A stretch of DNA of 64,000 nt from a virus (lineage: Duplodnaviria > Heunggongvirae > Uroviricota > Caudoviricetes). The DNA is taken from positions 53,276 through 117,275 of IMG/VR virus record IMGVR_UViG_3300029862_000001, one strand, 5' to 3'. A model generated the notes under the pieces. That model had not been told where the DNA came from and searched no databases. It saw only the letters and a program-made list of their open reading frames with translations. The translations under genes were made by a program, and so were the position numbers. This document shows positions 2,045 to 64,000 of this stretch, piece after piece (the first letter of the stretch is position 1; every line of letters starts with the position of its first letter).

Positions 2045-2165
2045 CTTGACATACTCCCATCGCTAAAGCAAACGGGATTCTTGGATACAAACGTACGGAA
2101 CCCCCGGTTTTACAATCGTTGGAATCACCCGCACTTTCCAACTCGGAAATGCCCTTCCGAGGTCG
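2045..2165 (-). mobile_element. Orphan IS200/IS605 right-end (omega-RNA scaffold-like) copy with no adjacent tnpB
   Basis: ~120 bp, ~80% identical and co-linear with 63176-63292, which is the 3' end of tnpB plus its right end. Similarity stops at exactly the same point in both copies (cttgacatac...; on the - strand the element ends ...GTATGTCAAG). No surrounding TnpB-like coding sequence. Confidence 0.55.
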
Positions 2166-2252
2166 CAAGACAGGGCAAATATAATGTTTAATTATCATCT
2201 GACACATAAATGGGATCAGTATTACCATTAAATAACATAAAACAATAATAAT

Positions 2253-4989: not shown

Positions 4990-5377
4990 ATTAGATAAAG
5001 TGGTTAATATCCTAAAAGAAAAAGGATTTGTAGTATATAGAAAGGGCGGGAAGGAGCCAGGTGTGTTTTACGCTAAAGAAGGTGACAGCCGGATAGGATT
5101 CGTTTATCCCAACAACGGATATATATACGACAGGATAAAGATGTGGTCTTTTTCAAGGGTATATAAACCACATAAGAAAACCGGGTCTTCGTGCTTAATG
5201 TGTGTCAGCGACGAATTTACTATAGAGAATGCGATTAAGAACATAGAGGATAGACTGTGGGTAAATTACATAAAAGACGGTAACAGAAAACGACCAGAAG
5301 AATATAAAAATATAAGAGAATTTGTTGGTAGCTTCACTAAATTCTACAACTCTGTAGAATTAGTTGAGGTTAAGTAG
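4967..5377 (+). CDS. hypothetical protein (136 aa)
   Basis: ATG start overlapping the previous gene's end. Confidence 0.5.
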   Translation: MKMNVENKLDKVVNILKEKGFVVYRKGGKEPGVFYAKEGDSRIGFVYPNNGYIYDRIKMWSFSRVYKPHKKTGSSCLMCVSDEFTIENAIKNIEDRLWVNYIKDGNRKRPEEYKNIREFVGSFTKFYNSVELVEVK

Positions 5378-5452: not shown

Positions 5453-5705
5453 GATGGAGAAAAGAGACAAGAAGATGCCTTACGAGGTAGTCATACAGGA
5501 AAGAAAAAGAGTGGATTTGTACGGTAACGTAGTGTATTATATCCATTGGTTTGATAAATATGGGGACAATATCACAAACGAATGGAAATTCTGGAGCAAG
5601 GGTCCGAAAAAGAAATACGATAGAGTTAATCGTTATCTAACGGATAGTTGGTTGAAGGAATACTGTGGGAATAACAATTTAAAGATAAGGAGAATAAAAG
5701 AATGA
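5453..5705 (+). CDS. hypothetical protein (84 aa)
   Basis: Track start at 5421 is GTG inside the terminator hairpin; ATG at 5453 has RBS aaggagg 7 nt upstream. Confidence 0.5.
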
Positions 5706-5815
5706 AAAATATAAAAGTAGATAAAGTGATATTATATTACATGGATCGGGTAGACCCTGACGGGAACTTATACCGGTTCTATGTGTATAAAGGAATGGCA
5801 TCTGAAATAGAATAA
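5702..5815 (+). CDS. small hypothetical protein (37 aa)
   Basis: ATGA overlap with the previous gene and RBS taaggag; below the ORF-track size cut-off. Confidence 0.3.
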   Translation: MKNIKVDKVILYYMDRVDPDGNLYRFYVYKGMASEIE

Positions 5816-5963
5816 TTTTGCACGGAAGAGGCAGGTAATATGACCATACCAATCGGAGAAGGAGAGTATGTCGAGATCGTACTTGACAACGGAGAGAAAC
5901 AATAGAACATATATCAGAATCGGTTATTAAAAAAATATATAGATGACCAAAAGAGGCATTGAT

Positions 5964-5990
5964 CCCCTGCTTAAAAGCAGGGGCTTTGCT
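5964..5990 (+). terminator. Perfect 8-bp hairpin cccctgct-taaa-agcagggg followed by cttTgct
   Basis: Seen in sequence, in a ~390-bp stretch of low coding density (5816-6098). Confidence 0.35.
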
Positions 5991-6098
5991 AAAGATCGTA
6001 AAGTGCGAAGAACCCAGGTTCAGGGGAGACGCGGCCTGTTCTGCGTGGCGTAAGGCTACAGTAGATGAAATTATTGAACATTTTAAAAACAGATAATT

Positions 6099-6512
6099 AT
6101 GGGATATATATGTACAAGATGTGGTGGAACAAATGTTGCCTGTGAAGCCATAGTAAATCCGAATACCGGAAAAATAATAGATTATTTTGATGGATCTTTC
6201 GCGCATGCTATTTGCTCGGATTGTGAAAACGAGGTAATAATATCCAACATTGAAGAAGTCAAACATGAAATTGATTTAAGATTTCATGAATTTGTAGAAA
6301 GAACAGGGAAGGAGCCTGAATACGTAGAATGTCAGATTGTGTGGAAAGAGACAGGAGACGATAAAAGAACGACAATCAAACTATCGCTGAGTATCAACGA
6401 TGATGATAATGATGATGTTTTTTATTATTGTAATGGAATAGAATCGTTTAAGCAACTTGCTGAATACGGGATGGTAAAATTTATCGTAACAGGTTGTTGG
6501 AATTTCTTTTAA
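6099..6512 (+). CDS. hypothetical zinc-ribbon protein (CxxC...CxxC)
   Basis: ATG start; CTRCGG...CSDCEN motifs. Confidence 0.55.
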   Translation: MGYICTRCGGTNVACEAIVNPNTGKIIDYFDGSFAHAICSDCENEVIISNIEEVKHEIDLRFHEFVERTGKEPEYVECQIVWKETGDDKRTTIKLSLSINDDDNDDVFYYCNGIESFKQLAEYGMVKFIVTGCWNFF

Positions 6513-8459: not shown

Positions 8460-8582
8460 CTCTAATGAGAAAATTATTAAAAGTAAAATTTATTCAAAAA
8501 TGTGCATGCGGGGCGGTCACTATCAGATTTGATAATGACCGCTGAATTAAGTAACATAGCTAAGAATTGTAAAATATAGAAA

Positions 8583-8813
8583 ATGTTAGGATGTCAGACA
8601 TATTGTATATCAGACAGTCCTTCGAATAGATACTGTCTTATTGGACCTATTGAGTGCAATGAGAAGTTAATAGAAGTGTTTAAGAAGGGGATAATGGTAA
8701 AACTCAAATACGTGGAAAAACGAGTCCTGGATACATTTACGGACAACGGAGTCGACCTGAGCAATTACACTCACTGTATTATTGTGAAGCGGAATTTTTA
8801 TCTCGCTTGGTAA
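8583..8813 (+). CDS. hypothetical protein (76 aa)
   Basis: ATG start after a 120-bp intergenic hairpin (gcggtca...tgaccgc at ~8509-8544). Confidence 0.4.
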   Translation: MLGCQTYCISDSPSNRYCLIGPIECNEKLIEVFKKGIMVKLKYVEKRVLDTFTDNGVDLSNYTHCIIVKRNFYLAW

Positions 8814-8831
8814 CGGCAAAACATAAACAAT

Positions 8832-9494
8832 ATGAATAATTTTGTAATAGATACTCCAGATAATTTCTGGCAAATAAGATGGCTTGACAAGTATATGGAA
8901 GGCCACAAAGGATTCATAGCTGGTGGATGTTTTAAAAATATCCTTTCCGGAGAAAGAGTAAAAGACATTGATATTTTCTTTGAAAGTGAAAGCGATTTTC
9001 AGGAGGCTATTGATTCGTTCAATGATGAAAAACATCAGAAAGAAGGATGGAAATTTAAGTACAGAAATGAGAAGGTATGTGCGTTCCAGAAAGAGGGAGA
9101 AAAGGTATGGATAGAGTTCATAGAGTCAGAGTTTGGAAAGCCGAAAGAGATTCTTAGGAGCTTCGATTTTACTGTGACAAAAATGGCTTACTATAAGGAG
9201 CCCAAATACGAAGAAAAAGAAGATGATTATTTTCCATTCTCATCTGCAAGTATAGTAGCATACGAGTACAAACTACTCTATCATGAGAAATTCTTCGAAC
9301 ATCTTCATATGAAGAGGCTGGTTATTGACGAAAATATCCCTTTTCCAGTAAGTACATGGGAGCGCTCATATCGGTATAAAGGATATGGTTACAATATGTG
9401 CCGGGAGACAAAGAAAAAACTTCTACAGGCTATTAAAGGTGTAAACGTAGAGGAGGAAGATGTATCTTTGTACACTACTGGAAGATGGGATTAA
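8832..9494 (+). CDS. putative minimal nucleotidyltransferase (polymerase-beta-like fold)
   Basis: Motif IAGGCFKNILSGERVKDIDIFF matches hG[GS]-x(9-13)-DhDh of the Pol-beta NTase superfamily. Judged by eye only. Confidence 0.45.
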   Translation: MNNFVIDTPDNFWQIRWLDKYMEGHKGFIAGGCFKNILSGERVKDIDIFFESESDFQEAIDSFNDEKHQKEGWKFKYRNEKVCAFQKEGEKVWIEFIESEFGKPKEILRSFDFTVTKMAYYKEPKYEEKEDDYFPFSSASIVAYEYKLLYHEKFFEHLHMKRLVIDENIPFPVSTWERSYRYKGYGYNMCRETKKKLLQAIKGVNVEEEDVSLYTTGRWD

Positions 9495-9952
9495 CCTATA
9501 AAACAAAATTGCTTATGAAAACATTAGAACAACTTAAAGAATTAGCATCAAAATGTTTAGACGGTAGAGATTTTAACAGACTGGCTAAATTTATCCCATA
9601 TAACATGATAAAGGATTTCGATATGGAGCCGAACGAAGAATACAATAACGAAGAAAGGTGGAACAGTACTGTAGTTGAATTTACCAGGGAGAATGTTTTG
9701 AAACAGCTTGAAGAAGATGTAAGATTCGGTTTTGAAAAGGCATTAAATCAGAGAGGAATATCAGCCAGTTTAATGTTTGAATGTGTAATGATGTGGAACT
9801 ACATCCTGGAAGAAGGTCTTGAAGACTGGGATGAGGATGATTATGGATTTTACGGGCTACCTCTATTTAAAGCTACGGCTGTAAAATACGGATGGGATAA
9901 TCCTATAGGGGAAGACAGCGGGAGAGAAAGAAAATATGATTCACAGTATTAA
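9485..9952 (+). CDS. hypothetical acidic protein (155 aa; alternative start at 9515)
   Basis: ATG at 9485 overlaps the upstream stop; no HEPN Rx4-6H motif seen. Confidence 0.45.
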   Translation: MGLTYKTKLLMKTLEQLKELASKCLDGRDFNRLAKFIPYNMIKDFDMEPNEEYNNEERWNSTVVEFTRENVLKQLEEDVRFGFEKALNQRGISASLMFECVMMWNYILEEGLEDWDEDDYGFYGLPLFKATAVKYGWDNPIGEDSGRERKYDSQY

Positions 9953-45694: not shown

Positions 45695-46276
45695 TTATGA
45701 AACTTCTATTTCATAATGCGAAGCCTCTGTCTCAACTATCAATCTTCCCTCTCCTTCAAACTCAACACTATCATTTCCTGGACCAGTAACAAAAGGGAAA
45801 TCAGATACGGATGTTACATAATCTCCAGAACCACCGGAAAAAGACTGACTTTTATTTTGTTTGTAATTGATAGTCAATTGTGTTTTACCTATCTGAAGAG
45901 TTCCAGATAAATTTTTAGTATAAGTAGTGGTAGTTGTAATATCCCCATTTTTATAACAATACATTATAAAGATGGTAACCGGACTCTTTTTTATATTACT
46001 ATCCGGACCTGCATGATAAGATTCATTTCCTCCAAATATGCTATAAATGTGACAATAAGGACCGACTCTTTTACTTGAAGTTTTAGCCTTATCCTCGACT
46101 CCTTTCAAAGATATAGTAACCTTACTCTTGTATTCAATATCCTTCCAATTACAGACTCCTTCACTTACGTTTCCAACAAACCTGTCATCAACATAAACCT
46201 CTATATTCCCCTGCTGATTGGTCTTCAACTGATACTGAACAAGACTTGAAACATCTTCGTATCTCCTTCTCATACT
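45695..46276 (-). CDS. beta-rich structural protein (~193 aa), possible fibre/adhesin-like
   Basis: ATG at 46276 with RBS aaggag 8 nt upstream (the track TTG start is 46282); Thr/Gly/Ser-rich, beta-strand-like composition. Confidence 0.5.
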   Translation of the reverse strand, partial: SMRRRYEDVSSLVQYQLKTNQQGNIEVYVDDRFVGNVSEGVCNWKDIEYKSKVTISLKGVEDKAKTSSKRVGPYCHIYSIFGGNESYHAGPDSNIKKSPVTIFIMYCYKNGDITTTTTYTKNLSGTLQIGKTQLTINYKQNKSQSFSGGSGDYVTSVSDFPFVTGPGNDSVEFEGEGRLIVETEASHYEIEVS

Positions 46277-49200
46277 CAACACTCCTTATTTAACTCATTT
46301 ATCGAATCCGAATTATCAGAACCTTCTACAAGATTCTTATTCCTATCTATCTCTTCCTGGCTCATATTACTAATCATATTTTGTATTTTCCTACCAGATT
46401 GAGATAAAGAACGGATGAATGCGCTGGAACTTATCTTAACTCCAAGATCCGGTTTTGCCCTAAACGCTTCACCGGTACTGATATTATACAAATCATACAC
46501 ACCTGAGTTCATATAGAATTTATATATCCAGTTTCCACCAGCTTTTTTGTACCCTAATTTGGTTAACTCGACTACACTCATACCAAATTTAATGCCATTA
46601 CGACCCATTATCTTCTCCGGTATAGGTTCTACCTTAGCCGGAACAGATGTATATGCTTCATCGCCGCCGTACAGGAAATAAGGGGTTGTCACCCTTGATA
46701 TGTGAGTAAGCGGTTCTTCGGATATACGAGGCTCGTCTTTCGCAGCCTTATATTCTTCCCTTGGATTGGATATCCTAATAAAAGGATCGTATGTCAAAAA
46801 GGTTAAGCCGTATTCTACTTTATAACCTGATACGCCGTTAAGATCCCTTATAGCCTTAGTCGTATGCGAGTGATTGATGGTGTCTATACCATACCTTGAT
46901 TCCATATCGGTCATAATACTATTAACCTCATCTCCCTCTACATAAACCTCTTCTCCTTCCGGGATAGAGGTTATGCCGGCAGCCCTTCTAAGTAGCCATA
47001 AAGTGACTTCAGCAATGTCAGAGAACTTATCTCCGTTCTTCCTATAGTTATCTACTCTTCCTTCTTCATATCCAGGTAATTCGACATTTCCTTTAACTTC
47101 GACATTTGTTCTGGATTGTCCTTTGCCTTCTCCATCTCCCTTTTTATCGCCATCTTCCTCAGTGCGTACTGCACCGCCTTCTGCACTTCCTTCTTTTCCA
47201 TCATTTAAAATATTATCTGATTCTGACTCTATAGACTCCACGACAGCATCATACTCTGGTATGCCGCTAAGGAAATCTGCTACGTTATTCAAAAACTCTA
47301 TTTTTTCCTCGTTTGTCATATCAAGGCTTTCCACGGGCTCCCATATGGCAGGCAAGTTGTTTGATTTTATTGCAGTAGAAACATCTTCTACAGTTTTATT
47401 ATCCACCGTAGGCAAAACTTTAGAAACCAAACTATTGATATCAGATTCCATTTTTTCTACTTCCTCTTTTGTGCCATATTCTTTTAGGGTATCCATGCCA
47501 TTGACTCTAAGAGAATAATTCAAAGCCTTACTTGGAACAAAATTAATATATTTCAAAAAGTTTTTCAACTCTGATATAATTTGTTCGTTGTTGCCATTTC
47601 TACTATTTAAATAATCTACAACTACTTGCTCTTTGCTTTTCTTTAGGTAATCAACGTATTCATCCATAGTCAAACCCTTACTGTAAGATATTCTATCACC
47701 TACAGTACCCTTAGGGTCTAACCCCATTTCAGACTTAAGATCTTTAGGATTACCTCTTTGTCTTAAAAATCTAATATCTCCACCTACAATCTTTCTTGCT
47801 ATAAAATCATAGATATTAGCAAAAGGGGGTAAGTTGTTTTCCTTTATATAAGATTCTATATCCTCTAACCTTGCAGCAAAAGACTTCCTTGTAGTCCTGG
47901 TTGTTCCAGTAGAAGAAACTGACGAGCCGCTCGTGGCTGTAGGCTGCTGTACTGGGGCAGTCTTGCCGGCAGCCGGCTGCTGTTCTTCCTCTGGCATTTC
48001 CTCTTCATAAACATCCACGTATTCTTTAGAAGTAACGGTCTTACCCTCATCAGAGAAAGGAAGATCATCCTCTATAAGCGACTTAGGGCTGGAAGATGAT
48101 TTACCAAACTGAATCCTGATCTTAGGAGCAACAAACATCTCACCTTCGAAATCTATTCCAGATTCTACTTCAGACGTCACAATGTCTTTAACGCTCCTAC
48201 TTCCATCTTCTACCCACTTAACAACATCAGGAACCGTAGATAATTTTTCTATAGCCTCACGAGCTTTTCTAAGCCCTGAAATAGGATTCAAATACGATAC
48301 TTGATACGAAGCCGGATCAAGACCTAACTTGGTTAGATACGCATTAAGATCTTGTATATCATCTTGACCCATCTGTAGCAATTCAGAATCACCAGATTCA
48401 AGTAGCATATCTATAAAAGACATCCATTTCTGCCCTTCCTCTGATTCTACAGAACGTAGACTAACTGGGAAAAGATAATTAAGACCGTTTTTACCTTTGA
48501 TGACAACTACCGGAACTCTTACATTTTTGTAATTATTCCCCTTGTCATTTAATATAGAATAAGCAAATGGGAAGCCTGTGTATTTAGATCCGTTCTTAAG
48601 CACGACTTTGCCATTTAATACATATCCGACATCAGATACTTTTTCAGCACCTTTTTCGGTAATGGGGAGATTTTCTACCTGGCCATATCCTTGACCGTTT
48701 ACCTTCATGTTAAACACCGGTCTTCCGGGAAGAGTCTGGGCAACAACATGCGTGCCGACGCTGATGGTAGCCGACCGACCAGCATCTTTCTTCCACTTGT
48801 TAAAAGCCGTTCTTCTTATTTTACTTATACCATCTATGCCCCCTGTGTCAGCTTTTACAACAGAAACGAATCTGTTCCCACTCATGACCTTGATAACCAT
48901 ATTGGACACCAGTTTATTCTCAGCAGATTCTATTCTTTTTTTATCGCCGGACTGAACAGCATCATTGTATTCGGCAAAAAGAGACTGATTATAGGTATCA
49001 TTTACATCTATTTCGAGATTAACCTTATCTCCTTTTTTCAAAGAAGATAATGCTTCCTGATCTATTTTATCTACTTCATTCTCTCCGAATCCGACACCCG
49101 TTCTGTACGGAACCAACTCATCTGAATCAAGACGCTTATAAACCAAAGAATAGGAATTACCCACGTCCTGAATAGACACATCTGTATAACGGTTAAGAAC

Positions 49201-52914: not shown

Positions 52915-55846
52915 AAATTTTTTGCAAAAAATCGTTCAACTTACTAAACTTGTCATTCATGTTGGGCATGATATTTATTCCTCTCATATACGGATCTCTC
53001 ATCTGATCAAGACGCTCTTGAATAGCCTCCTTCACGTATTTTACAAAGAAGTACTGAGGACACTTCTGGTGAATGCTATTCCAGTAATCCGCATACTCAT
53101 CATTACCAGGATCCAAAGGAACAAAATCCGAGAACAACAATGCAGGATTTTTAGAATTTTTAGTCCTTTTGTCATAGAAATTGACCGCTACCTCTCTCGA
53201 ACCCCTGTCATCCATTCCTTCCAACTGAACTGATATGTTATCAGACATGTCAATAAAATTATCAACAAAGGTTTTAACAACATTCATTTCTTCTGGCTTA
53301 AGGTAAGAACCATGAACCATTACTATATCATAAAGATCATTCTTAACATCAGCCTTAGAAGCCAAACGGGGAAGACCATTACGTATGAGATACTTATCAT
53401 AAGAATAGCCTTCCTTCTTTCCGGTATCTACAAAATCACAGGTTCCAAAACTTGATTTGTAACCATCTACTGGATAATTGCGCTCCTCAACCGAAGGATC
53501 TATACCCGCCTTAAGAAGTTCATCATTCGTGATCTCTACCCTTTTTGTAACATAAGAGTTTTCACCGGACCCTACTTGAGCAGTCAAGAATCTTCTGACA
53601 GTGCCATTATCTATCTCGGCGTCCATATTGATAGTATTAATAGCAGTAGGATCCAGATTATTTACCTTTCCTGCCATGTAACCAGACAATCTTCTAAACT
53701 GAGCCTTCTGCAAAGACTTTTCTGGTGAATCGGCATTCCAATTGTATCTTTTGTAAGAATCAAAGTAATGATACTGAGATAACTTATCAGAAATCTGATC
53801 GGGAGATACAGACATTTTTATCTCATCCTGCATCTGACCCGCTATCATGTCAGACACCCTACTATTTTTCTCAACATATCTTAACTGAGTAATAGTCAAA
53901 GGCTCCCCTTCCTGATAATCTTTTAAATCTATATCACCATCCTTATCTATGGTCATATAATCGGATATATTAAAATCAGGATCGCCATTGAGTTTCTTCA
54001 TTCCATTAATAAGAGCCAACGTGCCAGTAGAAGAACCATTATCCTCGCTTGTAACGGTATCAAATACGCCAGTTGTTATGGCCGTGGCGAGTAGGAAAGC
54101 TCCAGCCTTATCATCCGTATCGGTAAGATTTATAAAAGAATTTCCTTTCATAAACTTAGCATTACGAACTTTCCTGATAATATCCTTATTTTTTTCAGTA
54201 ACTATGTTATCGATTTGATAATCAGTTATGTTATTTATAGCCTTTGTGGCTCCGTTTGCCTTAGAATCAGAAAGAAGTAAAGCATCATAAGCTTCAGATA
54301 ATCTGTTATTTCCTTGTCCGAAATATCCGTTTTTCTGACCTCCATTGTTTTTTAAATAAGAATATATCCGCTCTTCAGGAGTCATATTAGCATACAATCC
54401 TGGATCAGTTTTTTCTTCTTCGTATGATGCTGCAACGATATTGTTTCTATCTGTAGGAGATAATGAATTATACAATTTCAATAAATTGGCTTTACGATCT
54501 GTAGAATGAGATTTAAGTAACTCATAAGGAATATCAGCCAAGTTAATAGATCCTGTCTTACCCGTTCCAGAGTTAATAGCCGTAGGCCCGTCCATAGGAG
54601 CCATCGGTACTCCCATACCGTCTGCGTCTGTCGTGCCTGCGGATGAGCTTTCAGTTCCCATCTTGGAGCCGTAAGTGCGCATGTACTCGGTTTCAATCTT
54701 AGCCTGAGCAAGTTGCTCTTTTGCCAACGATATTTCAACCATAGACTTAGCATTGTCAGTCAAAAACTTTTGCTGAGCCCTATCCTCTGCCAACCTTGCA
54801 AAATAAAGATCGTCTTTCTTCCTTTCAAAACTTGTATTGTCGTATCTCCATACATCAGTCATCTTATCGAAAAGATTATTAGTAACAACAAAATTAGCAG
54901 CCGCTACCGGATCAGACGAAGCTATTATCATATCTGCCTTCCTCTTGGCTTCTGCTTTCTGATTTTTAGCTTCCTGTATCTGGCTGTCAATACGATCAAT
55001 AATATCTTTATTATCCCCCACTGATTTCTTTTTTGCTTCCAATGCTCCTATGTGCCTATCGTATCTTTCGACATAAGACCCAATGTATTGACTAACCAAA
55101 TCCGGATTACTGAACACCGGATTGGTGGCTGCCATGTACGATGCTTCTATTCTCATCTGATTCCTCATGTTTTCAGATAAGTTAGCAGACACAAAATTCC
55201 TTATCTGGGAATCTGTAAGTTCATCTACATTAACTTCTATAATACCACCAGTAGGATTACCTTTAACATCATATTCTGTTGTCTGAATCTTCTTGCCTTC
55301 GTTATTTTTCCTAAAGTCACTAACCAGCTTATTTATCTCCTTAGTATAATCGACATAAGGAGAATAATGAAGACCTCCTAACCTTGATCCTGCTTTACCA
55401 TCTGACCTCCATTTGTAATAAGGATCCAAAGCATGCCATTCATTAATAGGAGAATAAAGTTCAGGATGATTCTGTTTTATAGATTCTATTTCCTTCATAA
55501 CCCTCTTGCCTTCTTTTGTGCCGGCAATCGCGTTAATGACCGTATCGTCCAGCACCGAGCTAATCTCTCCTTGTATGGCTCTCGTAACTCCATCAGAAGA
55601 AAGATCCACGCCTTTAAATTTTTGATTGATGTTAGCAATCACACCTGACATCTTATCCTCCATATAAGCTCGGGCTTCAGGCTTATCTATCTCTTGACCC
55701 ATAAGATAATCTACCTGGGTATAGATCTTTTCACGAGCAGCATCAACCTTCTGCTGTTTGTACATCATGACGTCCTTAACAAGATCTATGTTGTAAGGAC
55801 TAACATACGGGGCATATTGCCTTAAAATACTATACTGTGAAGCCAC
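52907..55846 (-). CDS. large structural protein (979 aa)
   Basis: GTG start at 55846 with strong SD aaggaggaccaaataGTG; overlaps the next gene by 8 nt. Confidence 0.7.
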   Translation of the reverse strand: MASQYSILRQYAPYVSPYNIDLVKDVMMYKQQKVDAAREKIYTQVDYLMGQEIDKPEARAYMEDKMSGVIANINQKFKGVDLSSDGVTRAIQGEISSVLDDTVINAIAGTKEGKRVMKEIESIKQNHPELYSPINEWHALDPYYKWRSDGKAGSRLGGLHYSPYVDYTKEINKLVSDFRKNNEGKKIQTTEYDVKGNPTGGIIEVNVDELTDSQIRNFVSANLSENMRNQMRIEASYMAATNPVFSNPDLVSQYIGSYVERYDRHIGALEAKKKSVGDNKDIIDRIDSQIQEAKNQKAEAKRKADMIIASSDPVAAANFVVTNNLFDKMTDVWRYDNTSFERKKDDLYFARLAEDRAQQKFLTDNAKSMVEISLAKEQLAQAKIETEYMRTYGSKMGTESSSAGTTDADGMGVPMAPMDGPTAINSGTGKTGSINLADIPYELLKSHSTDRKANLLKLYNSLSPTDRNNIVAASYEEEKTDPGLYANMTPEERIYSYLKNNGGQKNGYFGQGNNRLSEAYDALLLSDSKANGATKAINNITDYQIDNIVTEKNKDIIRKVRNAKFMKGNSFINLTDTDDKAGAFLLATAITTGVFDTVTSEDNGSSTGTLALINGMKKLNGDPDFNISDYMTIDKDGDIDLKDYQEGEPLTITQLRYVEKNSRVSDMIAGQMQDEIKMSVSPDQISDKLSQYHYFDSYKRYNWNADSPEKSLQKAQFRRLSGYMAGKVNNLDPTAINTINMDAEIDNGTVRRFLTAQVGSGENSYVTKRVEITNDELLKAGIDPSVEERNYPVDGYKSSFGTCDFVDTGKKEGYSYDKYLIRNGLPRLASKADVKNDLYDIVMVHGSYLKPEEMNVVKTFVDNFIDMSDNISVQLEGMDDRGSREVAVNFYDKRTKNSKNPALLFSDFVPLDPGNDEYADYWNSIHQKCPQYFFVKYVKEAIQERLDQMRDPYMRGINIMPNMNDKFSKLNDFLQKIYG

Positions 55847-60499: not shown

Positions 60500-62920
60500 C
60501 TAATTATCAGTGACGCCTTTAATGCGAAGCTGTATATTGGGAAGCACGGCATTAATCAAAGCCATTTTCTTATCCTCTTCGCTTTCTTTTTCATGCTGTC
60601 TATACATCATGCTGTAATCACTGTCATCACCATCCTTTTTCCCGTCTAACGTCAGTAAATGATTTATGATGTCCTTACCATACGTTTCAGCCCATGTACG
60701 GAATCTCTCTTCCTCGGACTGTCTCTCCTGGGACGGAGCTTCCGGGTTAGGAAGGGCGGCTGCCATTTCTACCTCTGGAAGTGTTACCGATGCTGCTATT
60801 TCCCCATCATCTCCGAATCCCATTTGACCATACGAAGATACGGAATTTTCTTCAATATCCAAACCAAGATTTTTAGCAACCTCCATAGCATAGTTATAAC
60901 GGTCATCGTTTCGTATCACGCTTTTATGAGGACGTCCTGCTCCTTGGTTCCAAGCTACTACAGCATCTTTAAGGTTATCGGCGTTCATGAAGTCCTGCCG
61001 GCTGTAGTTGTAATACCCTGGTCCTTCTTTTCCTTTTCTTGTGTATAAGAAATTAGAATATCCGGTTTTCCCTTCATATTCGTCAGCCAAGAACTCAAGT
61101 TGGTCTTTGAATGTGGGTGTAGAATGACCTTTCTTTTTGGCATGCTTGAATAGCTTATCCATGCGCTCATTATGCCATTGCTGTATGCCGTATGATGTTC
61201 TGTTGTCTCCGTATATGTCATCTTTAAGACCGGATTCAGCCATGAGATTACCTATGATAGCAAGCGCCTGTATCTTAGACATGCCTCTTTTATTAGTAAA
61301 ATATTCATATGCTTCACGCTGTTTACCAACCACGCCACCTTCTTTCTTGATATTGGTATTGTATCTCTTTCCATTCCACGTAAATTCCTTAAGACCTCTT
61401 TTCCTGGCTTCTTTAAAGGCTTCGCCTCTTGTAGTGGAAATCGGGTCTTGTAATTCAAGATCGTTTTTTATACCAAGAATGGCATTAATAATATTATCAT
61501 CCTTTTTATCATCATCATCTAATTTATCAACATTATTCGAAACGTAAGATTGGCTTATTAAATTTGATACGCTTTTTCTATTTTTATAAGTTCCTTCTTT
61601 ATCTGATGGAGCTTCAAAAGCATACACAAGTGGATACGAATAATCCGTATCTGGATCTTCTGACATAAATTCGCTTACTGCATGAATGGCTTTATTGTAT
61701 TTAGTATCCTTTATACTATACATCCCAGCATCTTGAACATGATCATAAAATCTGTCTATCATGTAATTGATATATCCACGCTTATCCCCCTTAAATCGCT
61801 CTTTATCTTTCTCAAACTCTTTGGGTGGATATCTTTTATCGGATTCTTGGAAAAGTCCCTTAAACCCTCCATAATCAGATACGGCATAGGGATTACCACC
61901 AGATTCTTCAATAATATTTCCAAGTACGGTTTCTATCTGGCGTTGATTGAAACCTTTATCATATAAAGCATCATAGATCATATTCATTCCATCTACGTCC
62001 ATAGTGCGGTGCGTACCCTTACCCACGCGCTTCATATTTTCATATTTGGATTTGAATAAATCCCAATCTATTTCCGGCTTAGAAGAATCCCCTCCTTGTT
62101 TTTTAGATCTTATCTTCATTTTTTTATCCAGATCATTCTTGGAATCAATGGCGGATTTCAACAAAACCTTGTTTGGATCATTCTCTTCATATGGATTCTT
62201 ATCTTCTACATAATCCAGAATATCAAACGGGTATCCTATTGTATCAAGAATCTTAGTAACAATCCCTACACCAAGAGGTTGATCGCTTCTATAAAAATCA
62301 TACTTATCTTTTACGACCATCCTACCTCTATCATCACGGTACATAGTGAAACTTGATAAGCCTGATAAATCATTTAAATCGCCGTAAGCGTCTGGTATAA
62401 AATTGTATTCGTTAAATACCTGATGTTCTCCAGTTCTGGCTTTTTTTAAGAGATCTATTCCCTCTTCCACCATTCCAAGTTTCCTACTTGTTACATCCCT
62501 TAACTCCTCCAAATCAGATACGTCCTTGCCTGCAACTTTTCCATCAATTATCTTATTATCTAAGGAATCAAGCTCCCTTTCATATTTTTTAGTCATTTTC
62601 TCCCACCCACCATTTATCCTGTCAGATATAATGGATTTGATATTGTCTGGTATTCTGACAATCCCATTTTCTTCTTTCAGATTATTTGGTTGGTTTAAGA
62701 ATCTAAACCAAAGATTCTGACTAAAATCATCTACATTGGCTTTCGGAACATCTTGACCAAAAAATTCCATTATTTTGGTTTTTAATCCTCTTTCATTAGC
62801 ATACACGTCAGGTGTTATATTAGATGCCAGATATTCTCTAAGTTTTACAAACGGACCAATTTTACTCCATAATGTTTTTGGTTGTTTGTCTCTTACATAA
62901 TTTTTAGTCTTCTTTGCCAT
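60500..62920 (-). CDS. virion-associated peptidoglycan hydrolase with two lytic transglycosylase (SLT-like) domains
   Basis: ATG at 62920 with RBS aagaaggaggaagaaaaaaATG. Motif 1 is ESGGNPYAVSDYGGFKGLFQ (ES...AxSxxGxxGLxQ); motif 2 is ESGLKDDIYGDNRTSYGIQQW. Confidence 0.6.
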   Translation of the reverse strand: MAKKTKNYVRDKQPKTLWSKIGPFVKLREYLASNITPDVYANERGLKTKIMEFFGQDVPKANVDDFSQNLWFRFLNQPNNLKEENGIVRIPDNIKSIISDRINGGWEKMTKKYERELDSLDNKIIDGKVAGKDVSDLEELRDVTSRKLGMVEEGIDLLKKARTGEHQVFNEYNFIPDAYGDLNDLSGLSSFTMYRDDRGRMVVKDKYDFYRSDQPLGVGIVTKILDTIGYPFDILDYVEDKNPYEENDPNKVLLKSAIDSKNDLDKKMKIRSKKQGGDSSKPEIDWDLFKSKYENMKRVGKGTHRTMDVDGMNMIYDALYDKGFNQRQIETVLGNIIEESGGNPYAVSDYGGFKGLFQESDKRYPPKEFEKDKERFKGDKRGYINYMIDRFYDHVQDAGMYSIKDTKYNKAIHAVSEFMSEDPDTDYSYPLVYAFEAPSDKEGTYKNRKSVSNLISQSYVSNNVDKLDDDDKKDDNIINAILGIKNDLELQDPISTTRGEAFKEARKRGLKEFTWNGKRYNTNIKKEGGVVGKQREAYEYFTNKRGMSKIQALAIIGNLMAESGLKDDIYGDNRTSYGIQQWHNERMDKLFKHAKKKGHSTPTFKDQLEFLADEYEGKTGYSNFLYTRKGKEGPGYYNYSRQDFMNADNLKDAVVAWNQGAGRPHKSVIRNDDRYNYAMEVAKNLGLDIEENSVSSYGQMGFGDDGEIAASVTLPEVEMAAALPNPEAPSQERQSEEERFRTWAETYGKDIINHLLTLDGKKDGDDSDYSMMYRQHEKESEEDKKMALINAVLPNIQLRIKGVTDN

Positions 62921-63098
62921 TTTTTTCTTCCTCCTTCTTAAATTTGTGGTAAGCATCACAAACCTTGTCAACCAACCATCCCATTAGATAGGCAGCGTGC
63001 TCATCTTCTCCGGCGTCAAAACTGTAGTTAATATTAAGATACTTACAATAAAGGGAAAGACCGTGCAGACATTCGTGTCCTATGGTTCTAACATCCAT
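62904..63098 (-). CDS. short ORF / possible C-terminal remnant of a gene abutting the IS right end
   Basis: The frame stays open from 63221 across the IS boundary (63176) to 62904; the part inside the IS is an artefact, and the first ATG in flank DNA is 63098. Confidence 0.25.
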   Translation of the reverse strand: MDVRTIGHECLHGLSLYCKYLNINYSFDAGEDEHAAYLMGWLVDKVCDAYHKFKKEEEKNGKED

Positions 63099-63175
63099 AT
63101 CAGATAGTGAATGAAATAAGAAACATATTTCTTTCCTGTGATTGGTTCGGTTTCCTACGAAAATAGTCCTGCCAC

Positions 63176-64000
63176 CTTGACATACTCCCATAGCTAAAGC
63201 AAATGGGATTCTTGGATACAAACGTATGGAACCCCGGTATTTCTATCGCTGGAATTACCCATACTCTCCAATTCGGAAATGCCCTTCCGAAGTATATTAC
63301 GGGCTGCAAGAACATCACGGTCGTTAATTGCGCCGCACGCCGGGCACACCCACGTGCGGTCGCGTAACGACAATCCTTTATTAATGCAGCCACATTCGCA
63401 AGTTTTGGAAGAAGGATACCATTTGTCAATCTTGTGTACTATCACTCCATACTTTGAAGCAACATACATTAGCTTATCAATAAAAGAAGAATGGCTAAGA
63501 TCAGAAACCTTCTTTCCCCACAAACGCTTCATTCCTTCAATGTTTAAATCTTCAATAAAAATATAATCATATTGTTTGCATAACTGGTGTGCTAATCCCC
63601 ATTGAAAATCCGATCGAAGATCTTTTATTTTACGATATGCTTGTTGGAGTTCAAACAGTCTCCTTCTTCTATTGTTGGATCCTTTCTTTGCATTAGAAAA
63701 CCGTTTGTTTAGTTTTCTAATCTTGTTTTGATATCGTTTGAAGAATAGTGGAGAATCGATTTTGCTACCATCGCTTTTAGTTAGATAAGTTTTCAGCCCA
63801 AAATCCAATCCGATAGATGCACCATCATGTGTCTTTCTATAAGAGTTTGAAGGATTATGGTCTGTAACTATAATCAAACTAAAACGTGAACAGGTTTCTC
63901 TAACTATTCTAATTTGTTTAACATTACCTTCATAAGGTCTACTGTATGAGAATCTAAATCGTTTCTTTCCTTTGTTAATTGTTAGAAAATTACCATTCAG
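63176..64000 (-). mobile_element. IS200/IS605-family element right end with tnpB (runs past the window edge)
   Basis: tnpB coding sequence plus ~18 bp beyond its stop; the terminus ...GTATGTCAAG (- strand) matches the TCAA-type right-end cleavage motif of this family; the boundary is defined by comparison with the orphan copy at 2045. Confidence 0.65.
63194..64000 (-). CDS. tnpB: TnpB (IS605 OrfB) RNA-guided nuclease, C-terminal ~270 aa (N-terminus outside the window)
   Basis: RuvC-I GASIGLDFGLKTY, RuvC-II YIFIEDLNIEGM, zinc finger CECG...CPACG, RuvC-III NDRDVLAARNI; the frame is open from 63877 up to position 64000 with no stop. Confidence 0.75.
   Translation of the reverse strand: MNGNFLTINKGKKRFRFSYSRPYEGNVKQIRIVRETCSRFSLIIVTDHNPSNSYRKTHDGASIGLDFGLKTYLTKSDGSKIDSPLFFKRYQNKIRKLNKRFSNAKKGSNNRRRRLFELQQAYRKIKDLRSDFQWGLAHQLCKQYDYIFIEDLNIEGMKRLWGKKVSDLSHSSFIDKLMYVASKYGVIVHKIDKWYPSSKTCECGCINKGLSLRDRTWVCPACGAINDRDVLAARNILRKGISELESMGNSSDRNTGVPYVCIQESHLL

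Follow-up and report, generated by a model that had tools for sequence, protein, structure and literature searches.

A stretch of 64,000 nucleotides, which is referred to here as the window (positions 53,276 to 117,275 of the virus record IMGVR_UViG_3300029862_000001) and which belongs to the genome of an epsilon crAss-like phage, was found to end within a non-autonomous member of the IS200/IS605 family that carries tnpB without tnpA and has ends resembling those of IS605 and IS608. Our best explanation, which we consider probable, is that this tnpB-only element entered the phage genome just after the terminator of a Ro60 gene, that phage DNA was then lost on its right-end side, and that the resulting arrangement would spread by homing. 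The element itself belongs to an already known kind, and the one-sided deletions that accompany it, here and among its relatives, are the unexplained part. In its core, an earlier sequence-only reading of this DNA was supported by our analysis, which found an IS200/IS605 tnpB element with a target-adjacent motif (TAM), both ends, an omega-RNA region, a flank that would serve as guide, and a cut phage open reading frame (ORF).

Identity of the element and its TnpB

The segment 63177-64000 (minus strand) represents the 3' 824 nt of a 1,243-bp IS200/IS605-family element, the rest of which lies beyond the window edge. Two metagenome contigs of ~141-144 kb (L003 and L004, one of them labelled human gut) were found via the neighbouring lysozyme protein; L003 is 100% identical to the final 4,000 bases of the window and supplies 419 further element bases past 64000 (window position = 72921 - L003 position). 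Translation of 63194-64000 gave 268 stop-free amino acids, which correspond to TnpB residues 112-379 and matched the Pfam families OrfB_IS605 (5.6e-18) and Cas12f1-like_TNB (1e-19); TnpB was also assigned to PHROG 506 at 1.9e-92. The gene runs off the window, as had been noticed before, and its remaining 5' part is present on L003, where the complete ORF occupies 8588-9727 and begins with an ATG equivalent to position 64333, outside the window. The complete 379-amino-acid protein from L003 matched the ISDra2 TnpB structures 8bf8, 8exa and 8h1j at 8e-28, and the alignment with ISDra2 showed that the RuvC Asp/Glu/Asp triad and the CxxC...CxxC zinc ribbon are kept. All of the RuvC-I/II/III motifs and the zinc finger pointed out in the sequence-only reading could be located and aligned:

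63194..64000, minus strand: 3' part of tnpB, residues 112-379 plus stop (TAG at 63194-63196), from Pfam, the L003 ORF and the ISDra2 match
63797..63811, minus strand: RuvC-I, GLDFG, with the catalytic Asp, aligned with ISDra2 GVDVG (D191)
63542..63556, minus strand: RuvC-II, IEDLN, with the catalytic Glu (ISDra2 alignment)
63386..63400 (CECGC) and 63332..63346 (CPACG), minus strand: zinc ribbon, ligands within 63332-63400 (Pfam and ISDra2 alignment)
63311..63325, minus strand: RuvC-III, NDRDV, with the catalytic Asp, following the zinc ribbon (joint span 63311..63400; ISDra2 alignment)

Element ends, TAM and omega-RNA

Read along the minus strand, the element begins after its TAM, TTAT, and consists of an 86-nt left end, tnpB, a structured right end that overlaps the end of tnpB, and TCAA. 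On L003, TTAT lies at 8498-8501, the left end starts at 8502, the tnpB ATG is at 8588, and the right end extends to 9744 (window position 63177). The sequence beyond 64000, in which the sequence-only reading had expected a left end with its TAM and perhaps tnpA, therefore holds TTAT and then a left end with a subterminal imperfect hairpin (AACCAA..CCACC/GGTGG..TTGGTT); tnpA is absent from the element, since the left-end start and the ATG are only 86 nt apart. Comparison of at least 24 left flanks showed that the conserved block starts as T-TAT followed by GATTATTTAACC in one subfamily (type 1) and as TTAC followed by GATCTTTAACAAAGCCCCTGC in a second one (type 2), and the left junctions were TTAT in all type-1 and TTAC in all type-2 copies. 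A shared ATGATTAT upstream of the element, which was considered as a trace of the target site in the phage gene, was rejected, being TTAT plus the first left-end bases.

The right end of all sampled copies finishes in ...GAGTATGTCA(A), with sequences diverging beyond. In the window, the conserved family block terminates in ...GAGTATGTCAA at 63177. The flank (62000-63176) is 93.9% identical to csAssE-Sib (OR575929.1), an epsilon crAss-like phage spelled crAssE-Sib in its paper, and this homology ends at 63176. We placed the boundary at 63177/63176 because the G at 63176 also occurs in the unoccupied site and varies among copies, those with other flanks showing A, T or C at this position. The right end had been called correctly to within one base in the sequence-only reading; its final G (63176) is flank, and the element ends in ...GTCAA at 63177. 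Similarly, the flank proposed there as the native guide does adjoin the scaffold, and it starts with GGUGGCAGG rather than GUGGCAGG. A one-base ambiguity of the boundary remains, as the left end and the flank both start with G. In one relative (L072, at 4157), the terminal GTCAA is doubled.

The last ~135 nt of 22 copies, including those of crAssE-Sib, MT839900.1, the Parabacteroides phage PF672P2, MT835597.1 and a Cryptobacteroides metagenome-assembled genome (MAG), were aligned, and the RNAalifold consensus contained 35 pairs, 23 of them with compensatory changes. Such changes also back the right-end hairpin (CCCAUU.GC/GC.AUGGG), which ends 10 nt before the cleavage site at the terminus and whose loop, CUUUAG, contains the tnpB stop codon. 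A covariance model built without window sequences (R1) had two matches in the window and no more, one at 63177-63301 (146.7 bits, E 1.2e-38) and the other at 2046-2167 (113 bits, E 2.8e-29), and the first of them stopped exactly at the element boundary, 63177; the omega-RNA suspected in the sequence-only reading was recovered in this way by an independent model. The region fits an omega-RNA scaffold with its 3' end abutting the flank, and such an RNA would be expressed and would take its guide from that flank. By the criteria tested, this is a non-autonomous IS200/IS605 member with a nuclease-competent TnpB-omega-RNA pair, whose activity is predicted from sequence. The features of this part are as follows:

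63177..63301, minus strand: right end and omega-RNA scaffold, three stems and a terminal hairpin (RNAalifold, covariance model R1)
63177..63180, minus strand: TCAA, the last four element bases and right-end cleavage tetranucleotide (end of the conserved block; crAssE-Sib homology from 63176)
63161..63176, minus strand: flank, predicted 16-nt guide GGUGGCAGGACUAUUU, adjoining the 3' end of the scaffold; also found after TTAT in the intact gene of 82 related sequences

The cut phage gene and the missing DNA

An unoccupied target, TTAT followed by GGTGGCAG, was found in crAssE-Sib at codon 47/48 of a gene of 137 amino acids (WOZ57296.1, PHROG 1365, function unknown, with a HECLH motif); across this empty site crAssE-Sib reads ...GGACTGATGATTAT joined directly to GGTGGCAGAACTATTTT. 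In addition, TTAT directly precedes GGTGGCAG in at least 82 other sequences, so that the comparison with relatives lacking the insertion, which the sequence-only reading had envisaged, defined the empty site. The whole gene is present at 80 further viral loci; Pfam gave no family for it, and PHROGs only the function-unknown one. In the window it is reduced to a remnant, which is read by a chimeric ORF starting inside the right end:

62904..63176, minus strand: remnant of the 137-amino-acid gene, codons 48-137 plus stop (by comparison with crAssE-Sib WOZ57296.1 and 80 viral loci)
62904..63221, minus strand: chimeric 105-amino-acid ORF, with a TTG start inside the right end, reading into the gene remnant
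63032..63051, minus strand: TTAT (63048-63051) plus the right flank/guide of the sister copies L006 and L007, a potential cleavage site for those copies here

The chimeric ORF overlaps the ATG of the next gene (62920) by 17 nt, in agreement with the frame that had been seen to stay open from the element to 62904; it is called as a gene on L003, and L004 calls only a 64-amino-acid version with an ATG start. The next gene itself (60500-62920, minus strand) had been labelled SLT, whereas its Pfam match is Phage_lysozyme2 (phage tail lysozyme, 4.2e-31). The sequence-only reading had also placed the insertion in or next to the 3' end of a gene. A phage ORF is indeed cut, but it is the 5' part (the leader and codons 1-47) that was lost, and codons 48-137 are kept.

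The left flank lies elsewhere in unoccupied genomes. On L003 it consists of the Ro60 (TROVE) gene, a terminator and then ...TATTTTATTTAT, directly before the element. The terminator was confirmed by a scan, and a scan for sigma-70 promoters gave 10 hits versus 6.8 expected. In unoccupied genomes the left-junction point lies 22-24 nt upstream of the ATG of the 137-amino-acid gene, and some relatives show TTAT and crAssE-Sib TTAC at this point. Compared with these genomes, ~165 bp (the leader of the gene and its first 47 codons) are absent between the left and right flanks, and the arrangement is therefore not a simple insertion. Two sister copies, L006 and L007, whose TnpB is 100% and 96% identical to that of the window, have the left junction in common with it, and their right junction is ~130 bp deeper in the 137-amino-acid gene, after CCTTTAT. 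Entry most likely occurred at the TTAT just after the Ro60 terminator. Subsequent loss, on the right-end side, of ~165 bp of phage sequence would then have fused the omega-RNA scaffold to codon 48, removing the leader and the first 47 codons of the gene.

One-sided deletions among relatives

Close relatives of TnpB were confirmed at 297 places on viral contigs, and we examined the best 80 of these 297 (89-100% identity), nearly all of which are on phage contigs of 75-160 kb. Judged by left junctions, these best 80 copies occupy at least 24 sites. When 150 nt of each flank was placed on crAssE-Sib and on the window (loci L003-L085), seven distinct sites showed contiguous flanks, that is, precise insertions with a 0-bp gap and no duplication. 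Three of the precise-insertion sites are empty in the window, where TTAT is followed by G, and hold full elements elsewhere:

45698/45699, plus strand: occupied in L017 and L019
13166/13167, plus strand: occupied in L045 and L049
26698/26697, minus strand: occupied in L020

A G directly followed TTAT in 9 of 9 precise type-1 insertions, which suggests either that five nucleotides are preferred or that the ends are shifted by one base. These precise insertions, together with the number of occupied sites, indicate that the family is mobile in these phages, as had been proposed.

Besides precise insertions, there were 14 junction types with 12 bp to ~2.5 kb missing. All signed gaps were zero or positive, which means that no duplications occurred, and it was always beside the right end that DNA was missing. 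Five sets comprised both a precise insertion and a right-side-deleted derivative with an identical left junction; no set had a common right junction and different left junctions. Moreover, for 13-14 of 16 new right junctions, intact genomes show TTAT or TTAC immediately before the junction point, compared with 1.45% of positions genome-wide (binomial P ~1e-21 to 2e-24). For example, in a frequent variant (L008, L027, L028, L033-L036, L039, L040, L046, L069, L078 and L081) the element stands in place of tRNA-Tyr, tRNA-Lys and most of Ro60 (TROVE), of which the final 116 nt are left. Rearranged copies were also observed: L063 has two right-end fragments in a head-to-head joint (~5040-5147), and L129 and L139 (~2140-2271) are internally deleted copies in which only the right end is retained.

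Deletions that start exactly at TCAA and end at a TAM point to the chemistry of a Y1 transposase, in which the 3'-OH of the right end is joined to a downstream target. The pattern could also reflect selection, since no other deletions would provide the RNA with a new guide that has a target to cleave. A further possible cause is that two direct copies recombined; the intermediates and duplications that this predicts were not seen. Cleavage by the element's own TnpB was considered and rejected as the cause of the deletions: ISDra2 TnpB cuts 15-21 nt into its target, and the deletions start at the last base of the element.

At the locus in the window, recombination would require one copy after the Ro60 terminator and another at codon 47 (TTAT followed by GG), with direct-repeat recombination deleting the interval and leaving a hybrid. 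TTAT precedes both junctions, some genomes do contain two copies, and copies do exchange sequence: L052 and L054 have the same junctions as L003 in the window locus and flanks 98-100% identical to it, and their element interior is 5-15% diverged, which suggests that copies located at different sites undergo gene conversion. We nevertheless regard this explanation as unlikely. A nearby pair of direct copies was present in no sampled genome, and no copy had the 5' part of the gene as its left flank. Crossing-over between genomes would also yield duplications, but 14 of 14 non-contiguous junction types were deletions, and 5 of 5 sets with a known ancestor retained the left and not the right junction. 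Another alternative is that the element simply inserted at codon 47 and that the left-end side later suffered an unrelated deletion, the end of which fell by chance at the TTAT after the terminator. In its favour, 82 intact sequences show a perfect TTAT-adjacent site at the position of the right junction. This course of events is very improbable, however, as the left-side deletion would have had to stop exactly at a TAM with the left end intact, a common right junction with differing left junctions was never seen, and the shared left and different right junctions of L006 and L007 fit one insertion with changes on the right side. Entry after the Ro60 terminator and loss on the right-end side remains the reading that we prefer.

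Relics in the window

Two decayed parts of related elements were identified elsewhere in the window:

2046..2167, minus strand: orphan right end resembling the omega-RNA (R1, 113 bits), with no tnpB or recognisable left end
5883..5997, minus strand: solo type-2 (TTAC) left end, located after TTTAC inside the ORF 5679-6266 (minus strand) and ending in ...CCGTTGTCAA

The first of these confirms the second right-end copy that the sequence-only reading had reported at 2045, which is real and was detected by the independent model (E 2.8e-29). It had been taken as a sign of recent activity, whereas it is an old relic: it keeps all stems, is ~87% identical to every sampled full copy, and occupies a single position, which is the same in 20 of 23 viral contigs. 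The relic is lacking in crAssE-Sib, where TTTTAT and GCATTATAC are contiguous. The relic flank GCAUUAUAUAAAUACA would match the TTAT-adjacent empty site of crAssE-Sib with one mismatch. In principle, the relic could act as a guide-only module for TnpB made elsewhere. We also considered 2046-2236 as a 191-bp miniature element and rejected it: its 5' 52-70 nt had no match to the left ends of the relatives checked, and 2168-2236 is the tail of a 127-amino-acid gene that is whole in L179. A palindrome-associated transposable element (PATE) or miniature inverted-repeat transposable element would have both ends and several sites, and the relic at 2046 has one end and one site. At the second relic, L024 and L025 hold a full-length element at the 5883-5997 site. 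These relics show repeated invasion and decay, not recent copying from the resident element, and recent activity is shown by the population data rather than by the relic at 2046.

The presence of two decayed relics in the same window might suggest that the element at 63177-64000 is likewise an inert remnant, a dead insertion expressing neither RNA nor protein. This is extremely unlikely in our view, since the ORF is full-length (379 amino acids) with all catalytic residues, a copy encoding a 100%-identical protein has a different right junction, and the RNA stems are held paired by compensatory changes.

An autonomous relative and a possible source of transposase

A tblastn search of 1.5 Mb with the IS608-like TnpA of Helicobacter phage phiHP33 gave one match, in MT839900.1 (7.6e-33). 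This TnpA has 132 amino acids, contains the DHVHLF (HUH) and KYIENQ (Tyr) motifs, and is 43% identical to the IS608-like TnpA. The tnpB gene beside it is on the strand opposite to tnpA and encodes a protein 76% identical to the window TnpB, and the whole autonomous element is 1,671 bp long, with TTAC, a TCAA end and a left end like that of the type-2 tnpB-only copies. These type-2 copies retain the last tnpA codons in their left end, as expected for a tnpA-deletion derivative. Seventeen viral contigs, which range from 10 to 157 kb and mostly from 80 to 157 kb, encode this TnpA with 95-100% identity, at no fewer than seven sites; the autonomous-element loci are L002 (MT839900.1), L197-L212 and L219. 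In one case, a single left junction of the autonomous element was combined with right flanks of four kinds. As one of the genes of MT839900.1 shows ~70% identity to a crAssE-Sib gene, this sequence is from a related phage. An autonomous source exists, then, in the wider phage group, and it could mobilise the TTAT-type ends of the copy in the window.

Several observations weigh against this overall interpretation. No Y1 transposase was among the best 25 of 28 matching Pfam families for the 69 ORFs of the window, and no TnpA was among the best 25 of 28 matching families for 79 crAssE-Sib ORFs (95-230 amino acids, first 150 kb). The autonomous relative has TTAC and a different left-end hairpin, compared with the TTAT type of this copy. 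Outside viruses, a TnpB scan of 185,579 bacterial and archaeal species genomes revealed no close relative; its single match, in the Cryptobacteroides MAG (56% identity), had no tnpA nearby and gave no clue to the host. A precise-insertion ancestor at the left junction of the window element was found in none of the 160 loci sampled. Finally, none of the families in Rfam release 15 matched the omega-RNA region at the gathering threshold, with only chance-level matches at E<=10, although an Rfam match is not a defining feature of TnpB elements.

Comparison with known systems

In accordance with membership of the IS200/IS605 family, the element has the OrfB core and zinc ribbon, is inserted 3' of a motif without duplication, and lacks terminal inverted repeats; the Y1 HUH TnpA of the family is absent from this copy. 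The right end of IS608 stops at TCAA with a hairpin 10 nt from the end, and its target tetranucleotide is TTAC; in IS605, tnpA and tnpB have opposite orientations. The window element shares with these two Helicobacter pylori elements ends of single-strand type that form subterminal hairpins, and like them it lacks inverted repeats and does not duplicate its target. As in IS608, insertion is 3' of a tetranucleotide (TTAC in IS608, TTAC or TTAT in this family), tnpB adjoins the right end, and both the TCAA terminus and the 10-nt hairpin spacing agree; the opposite tnpA and tnpB of the MT839900.1 element resemble IS605. Unlike both, the copy in the window has no tnpA, its TAM is TTAT, its TnpB is ~37% identical to theirs, and it resides in a lytic-type crAss-like phage instead of a bacterial chromosome. 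Compared with the TnpB-omega-RNA of ISDra2, whose TAM is TTGAT, the domain order, the D/E/D residues, the zinc-ribbon residues, the RNA overlapping the 3' end of tnpB and the flank guide are alike; the sequence is distant (8e-28), the TAM is different, the RNA has no Rfam match, and the activity of the window pair is a prediction. Like IS1341-type tnpB-only derivatives and PATEs, which have the ends with or without tnpB, the element has no transposase and would rely on TnpA in trans. The two short relics in the window differ from PATEs in that each retains one end, and they are decay products rather than mobile miniatures.

Within the same phage group, the crAssE-Sib TnpB WOZ57285.1 is 79% identical to that of the window and has a right end finishing in ...GAGTATGTCAA, but it is at another locus, and crAssE-Sib is empty at the window's site. 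According to passages of the paper on this phage, there are two TnpB genes in crAssE-Sib, the second of which is unrelated (18% identical), and TnpB occurs in only some Epsilonunovirus genomes (PMC11054128). This second, unrelated gene is located at 64190-65413 of OR575929.1. Those passages deal with the TnpB genes and not with ends, TAM, omega-RNA, relics or deletions (PMC11054128). Our literature search revealed no account, for these phages, of the one-sided deletions, the relics, the RNA, the TAM or the ends, and no title or abstract on the deletion pattern came up when we looked for flanking deletions of IS608 or for IS605 in crAss phages. TnpB genes were present in 416 phage records of the collection searched. 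Restorative homing by TnpB is treated in a 2026 review, which deals in another place with phage endonuclease genes that are free-standing and home (PMC13565253). Apart from the TnpB genes, OR575929.1 contains a diversity-generating retroelement (reverse transcriptase, TR/VR) at 45751-47816.

Proposed working and implications

According to the ISDra2/IS608 paradigm, TnpB would be guided by an omega-RNA that ends in the first ~16 nt of flank (GGUGGCAGGACUAUUU), and would cut TTAT followed by that sequence. The predicted cleavage target, TTAT and then GGTGGCAGGACTATTT, is the intact 137-amino-acid gene in related phages. When both kinds of phage infect the same cell, the element-bearing genome would serve as the template for repair of the break, and the element would thereby spread by homing together with its deletion. 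Movement to new TTAT or TTAC sites would need a Y1 transposase in trans, possibly from the autonomous relatives.

An alternative is that the phage has taken TnpB into its own service and the element has ceased to be mobile; the domesticated protein would then be either a TldR-like regulator or an RNA-guided weapon used on phage competitors. The absence of tnpA would fit this idea, as would the match along the whole ORF (residues 1-379) at almost every one of the best 80 of 297 loci and a guide that matches a gene present in most relatives. However, TldR proteins have lost RuvC residues or have a cut C-terminus, and here the three residues of the triad and the zinc ribbon are kept, so that this TnpB is not TldR-like. 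The left end, the right end and the TAM are all conserved, at least 24 sites are occupied, with precise insertions among them, and presence is patchy among close relatives, as it also is in Epsilonunovirus according to passages of PMC11054128. Domestication is thus improbable, and we retain the reading of a mobile element that would spread by homing.

With regard to the deletions, we put forward a tentative idea, one that we think more doubtful than not, namely that they reprogram the guide and act as a ratchet, spreading a transposase-less TnpB element through a phage population while erasing neighbouring genes. A deletion from the right end to a point just after TTAT or TTAC would give the omega-RNA a new guide, whose target would be present in every genome lacking the deletion, the ancestor of the element among them. 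As the target of this ancestor would be gone from the genome with the deletion, each deletion would out-drive its predecessor in mixed infections. If this is true, the genes erased in this manner are the 137-amino-acid gene here and tRNA-Tyr, tRNA-Lys and Ro60 elsewhere.

Although the element itself is ordinary, its value lies in the natural record it has left in abundant gut phages, which includes near-identical genomes with and without the element, exact empty sites, a TAM, a covarying omega-RNA, relics and an autonomous relative. The deletions on the right-end side show that such elements remodel phage genomes, including the loss of tRNA and Ro60 genes. This record makes it testable how TnpB-only elements persist and spread without a transposase of their own, and whether an RNA-guided nuclease drives elements through virus populations.

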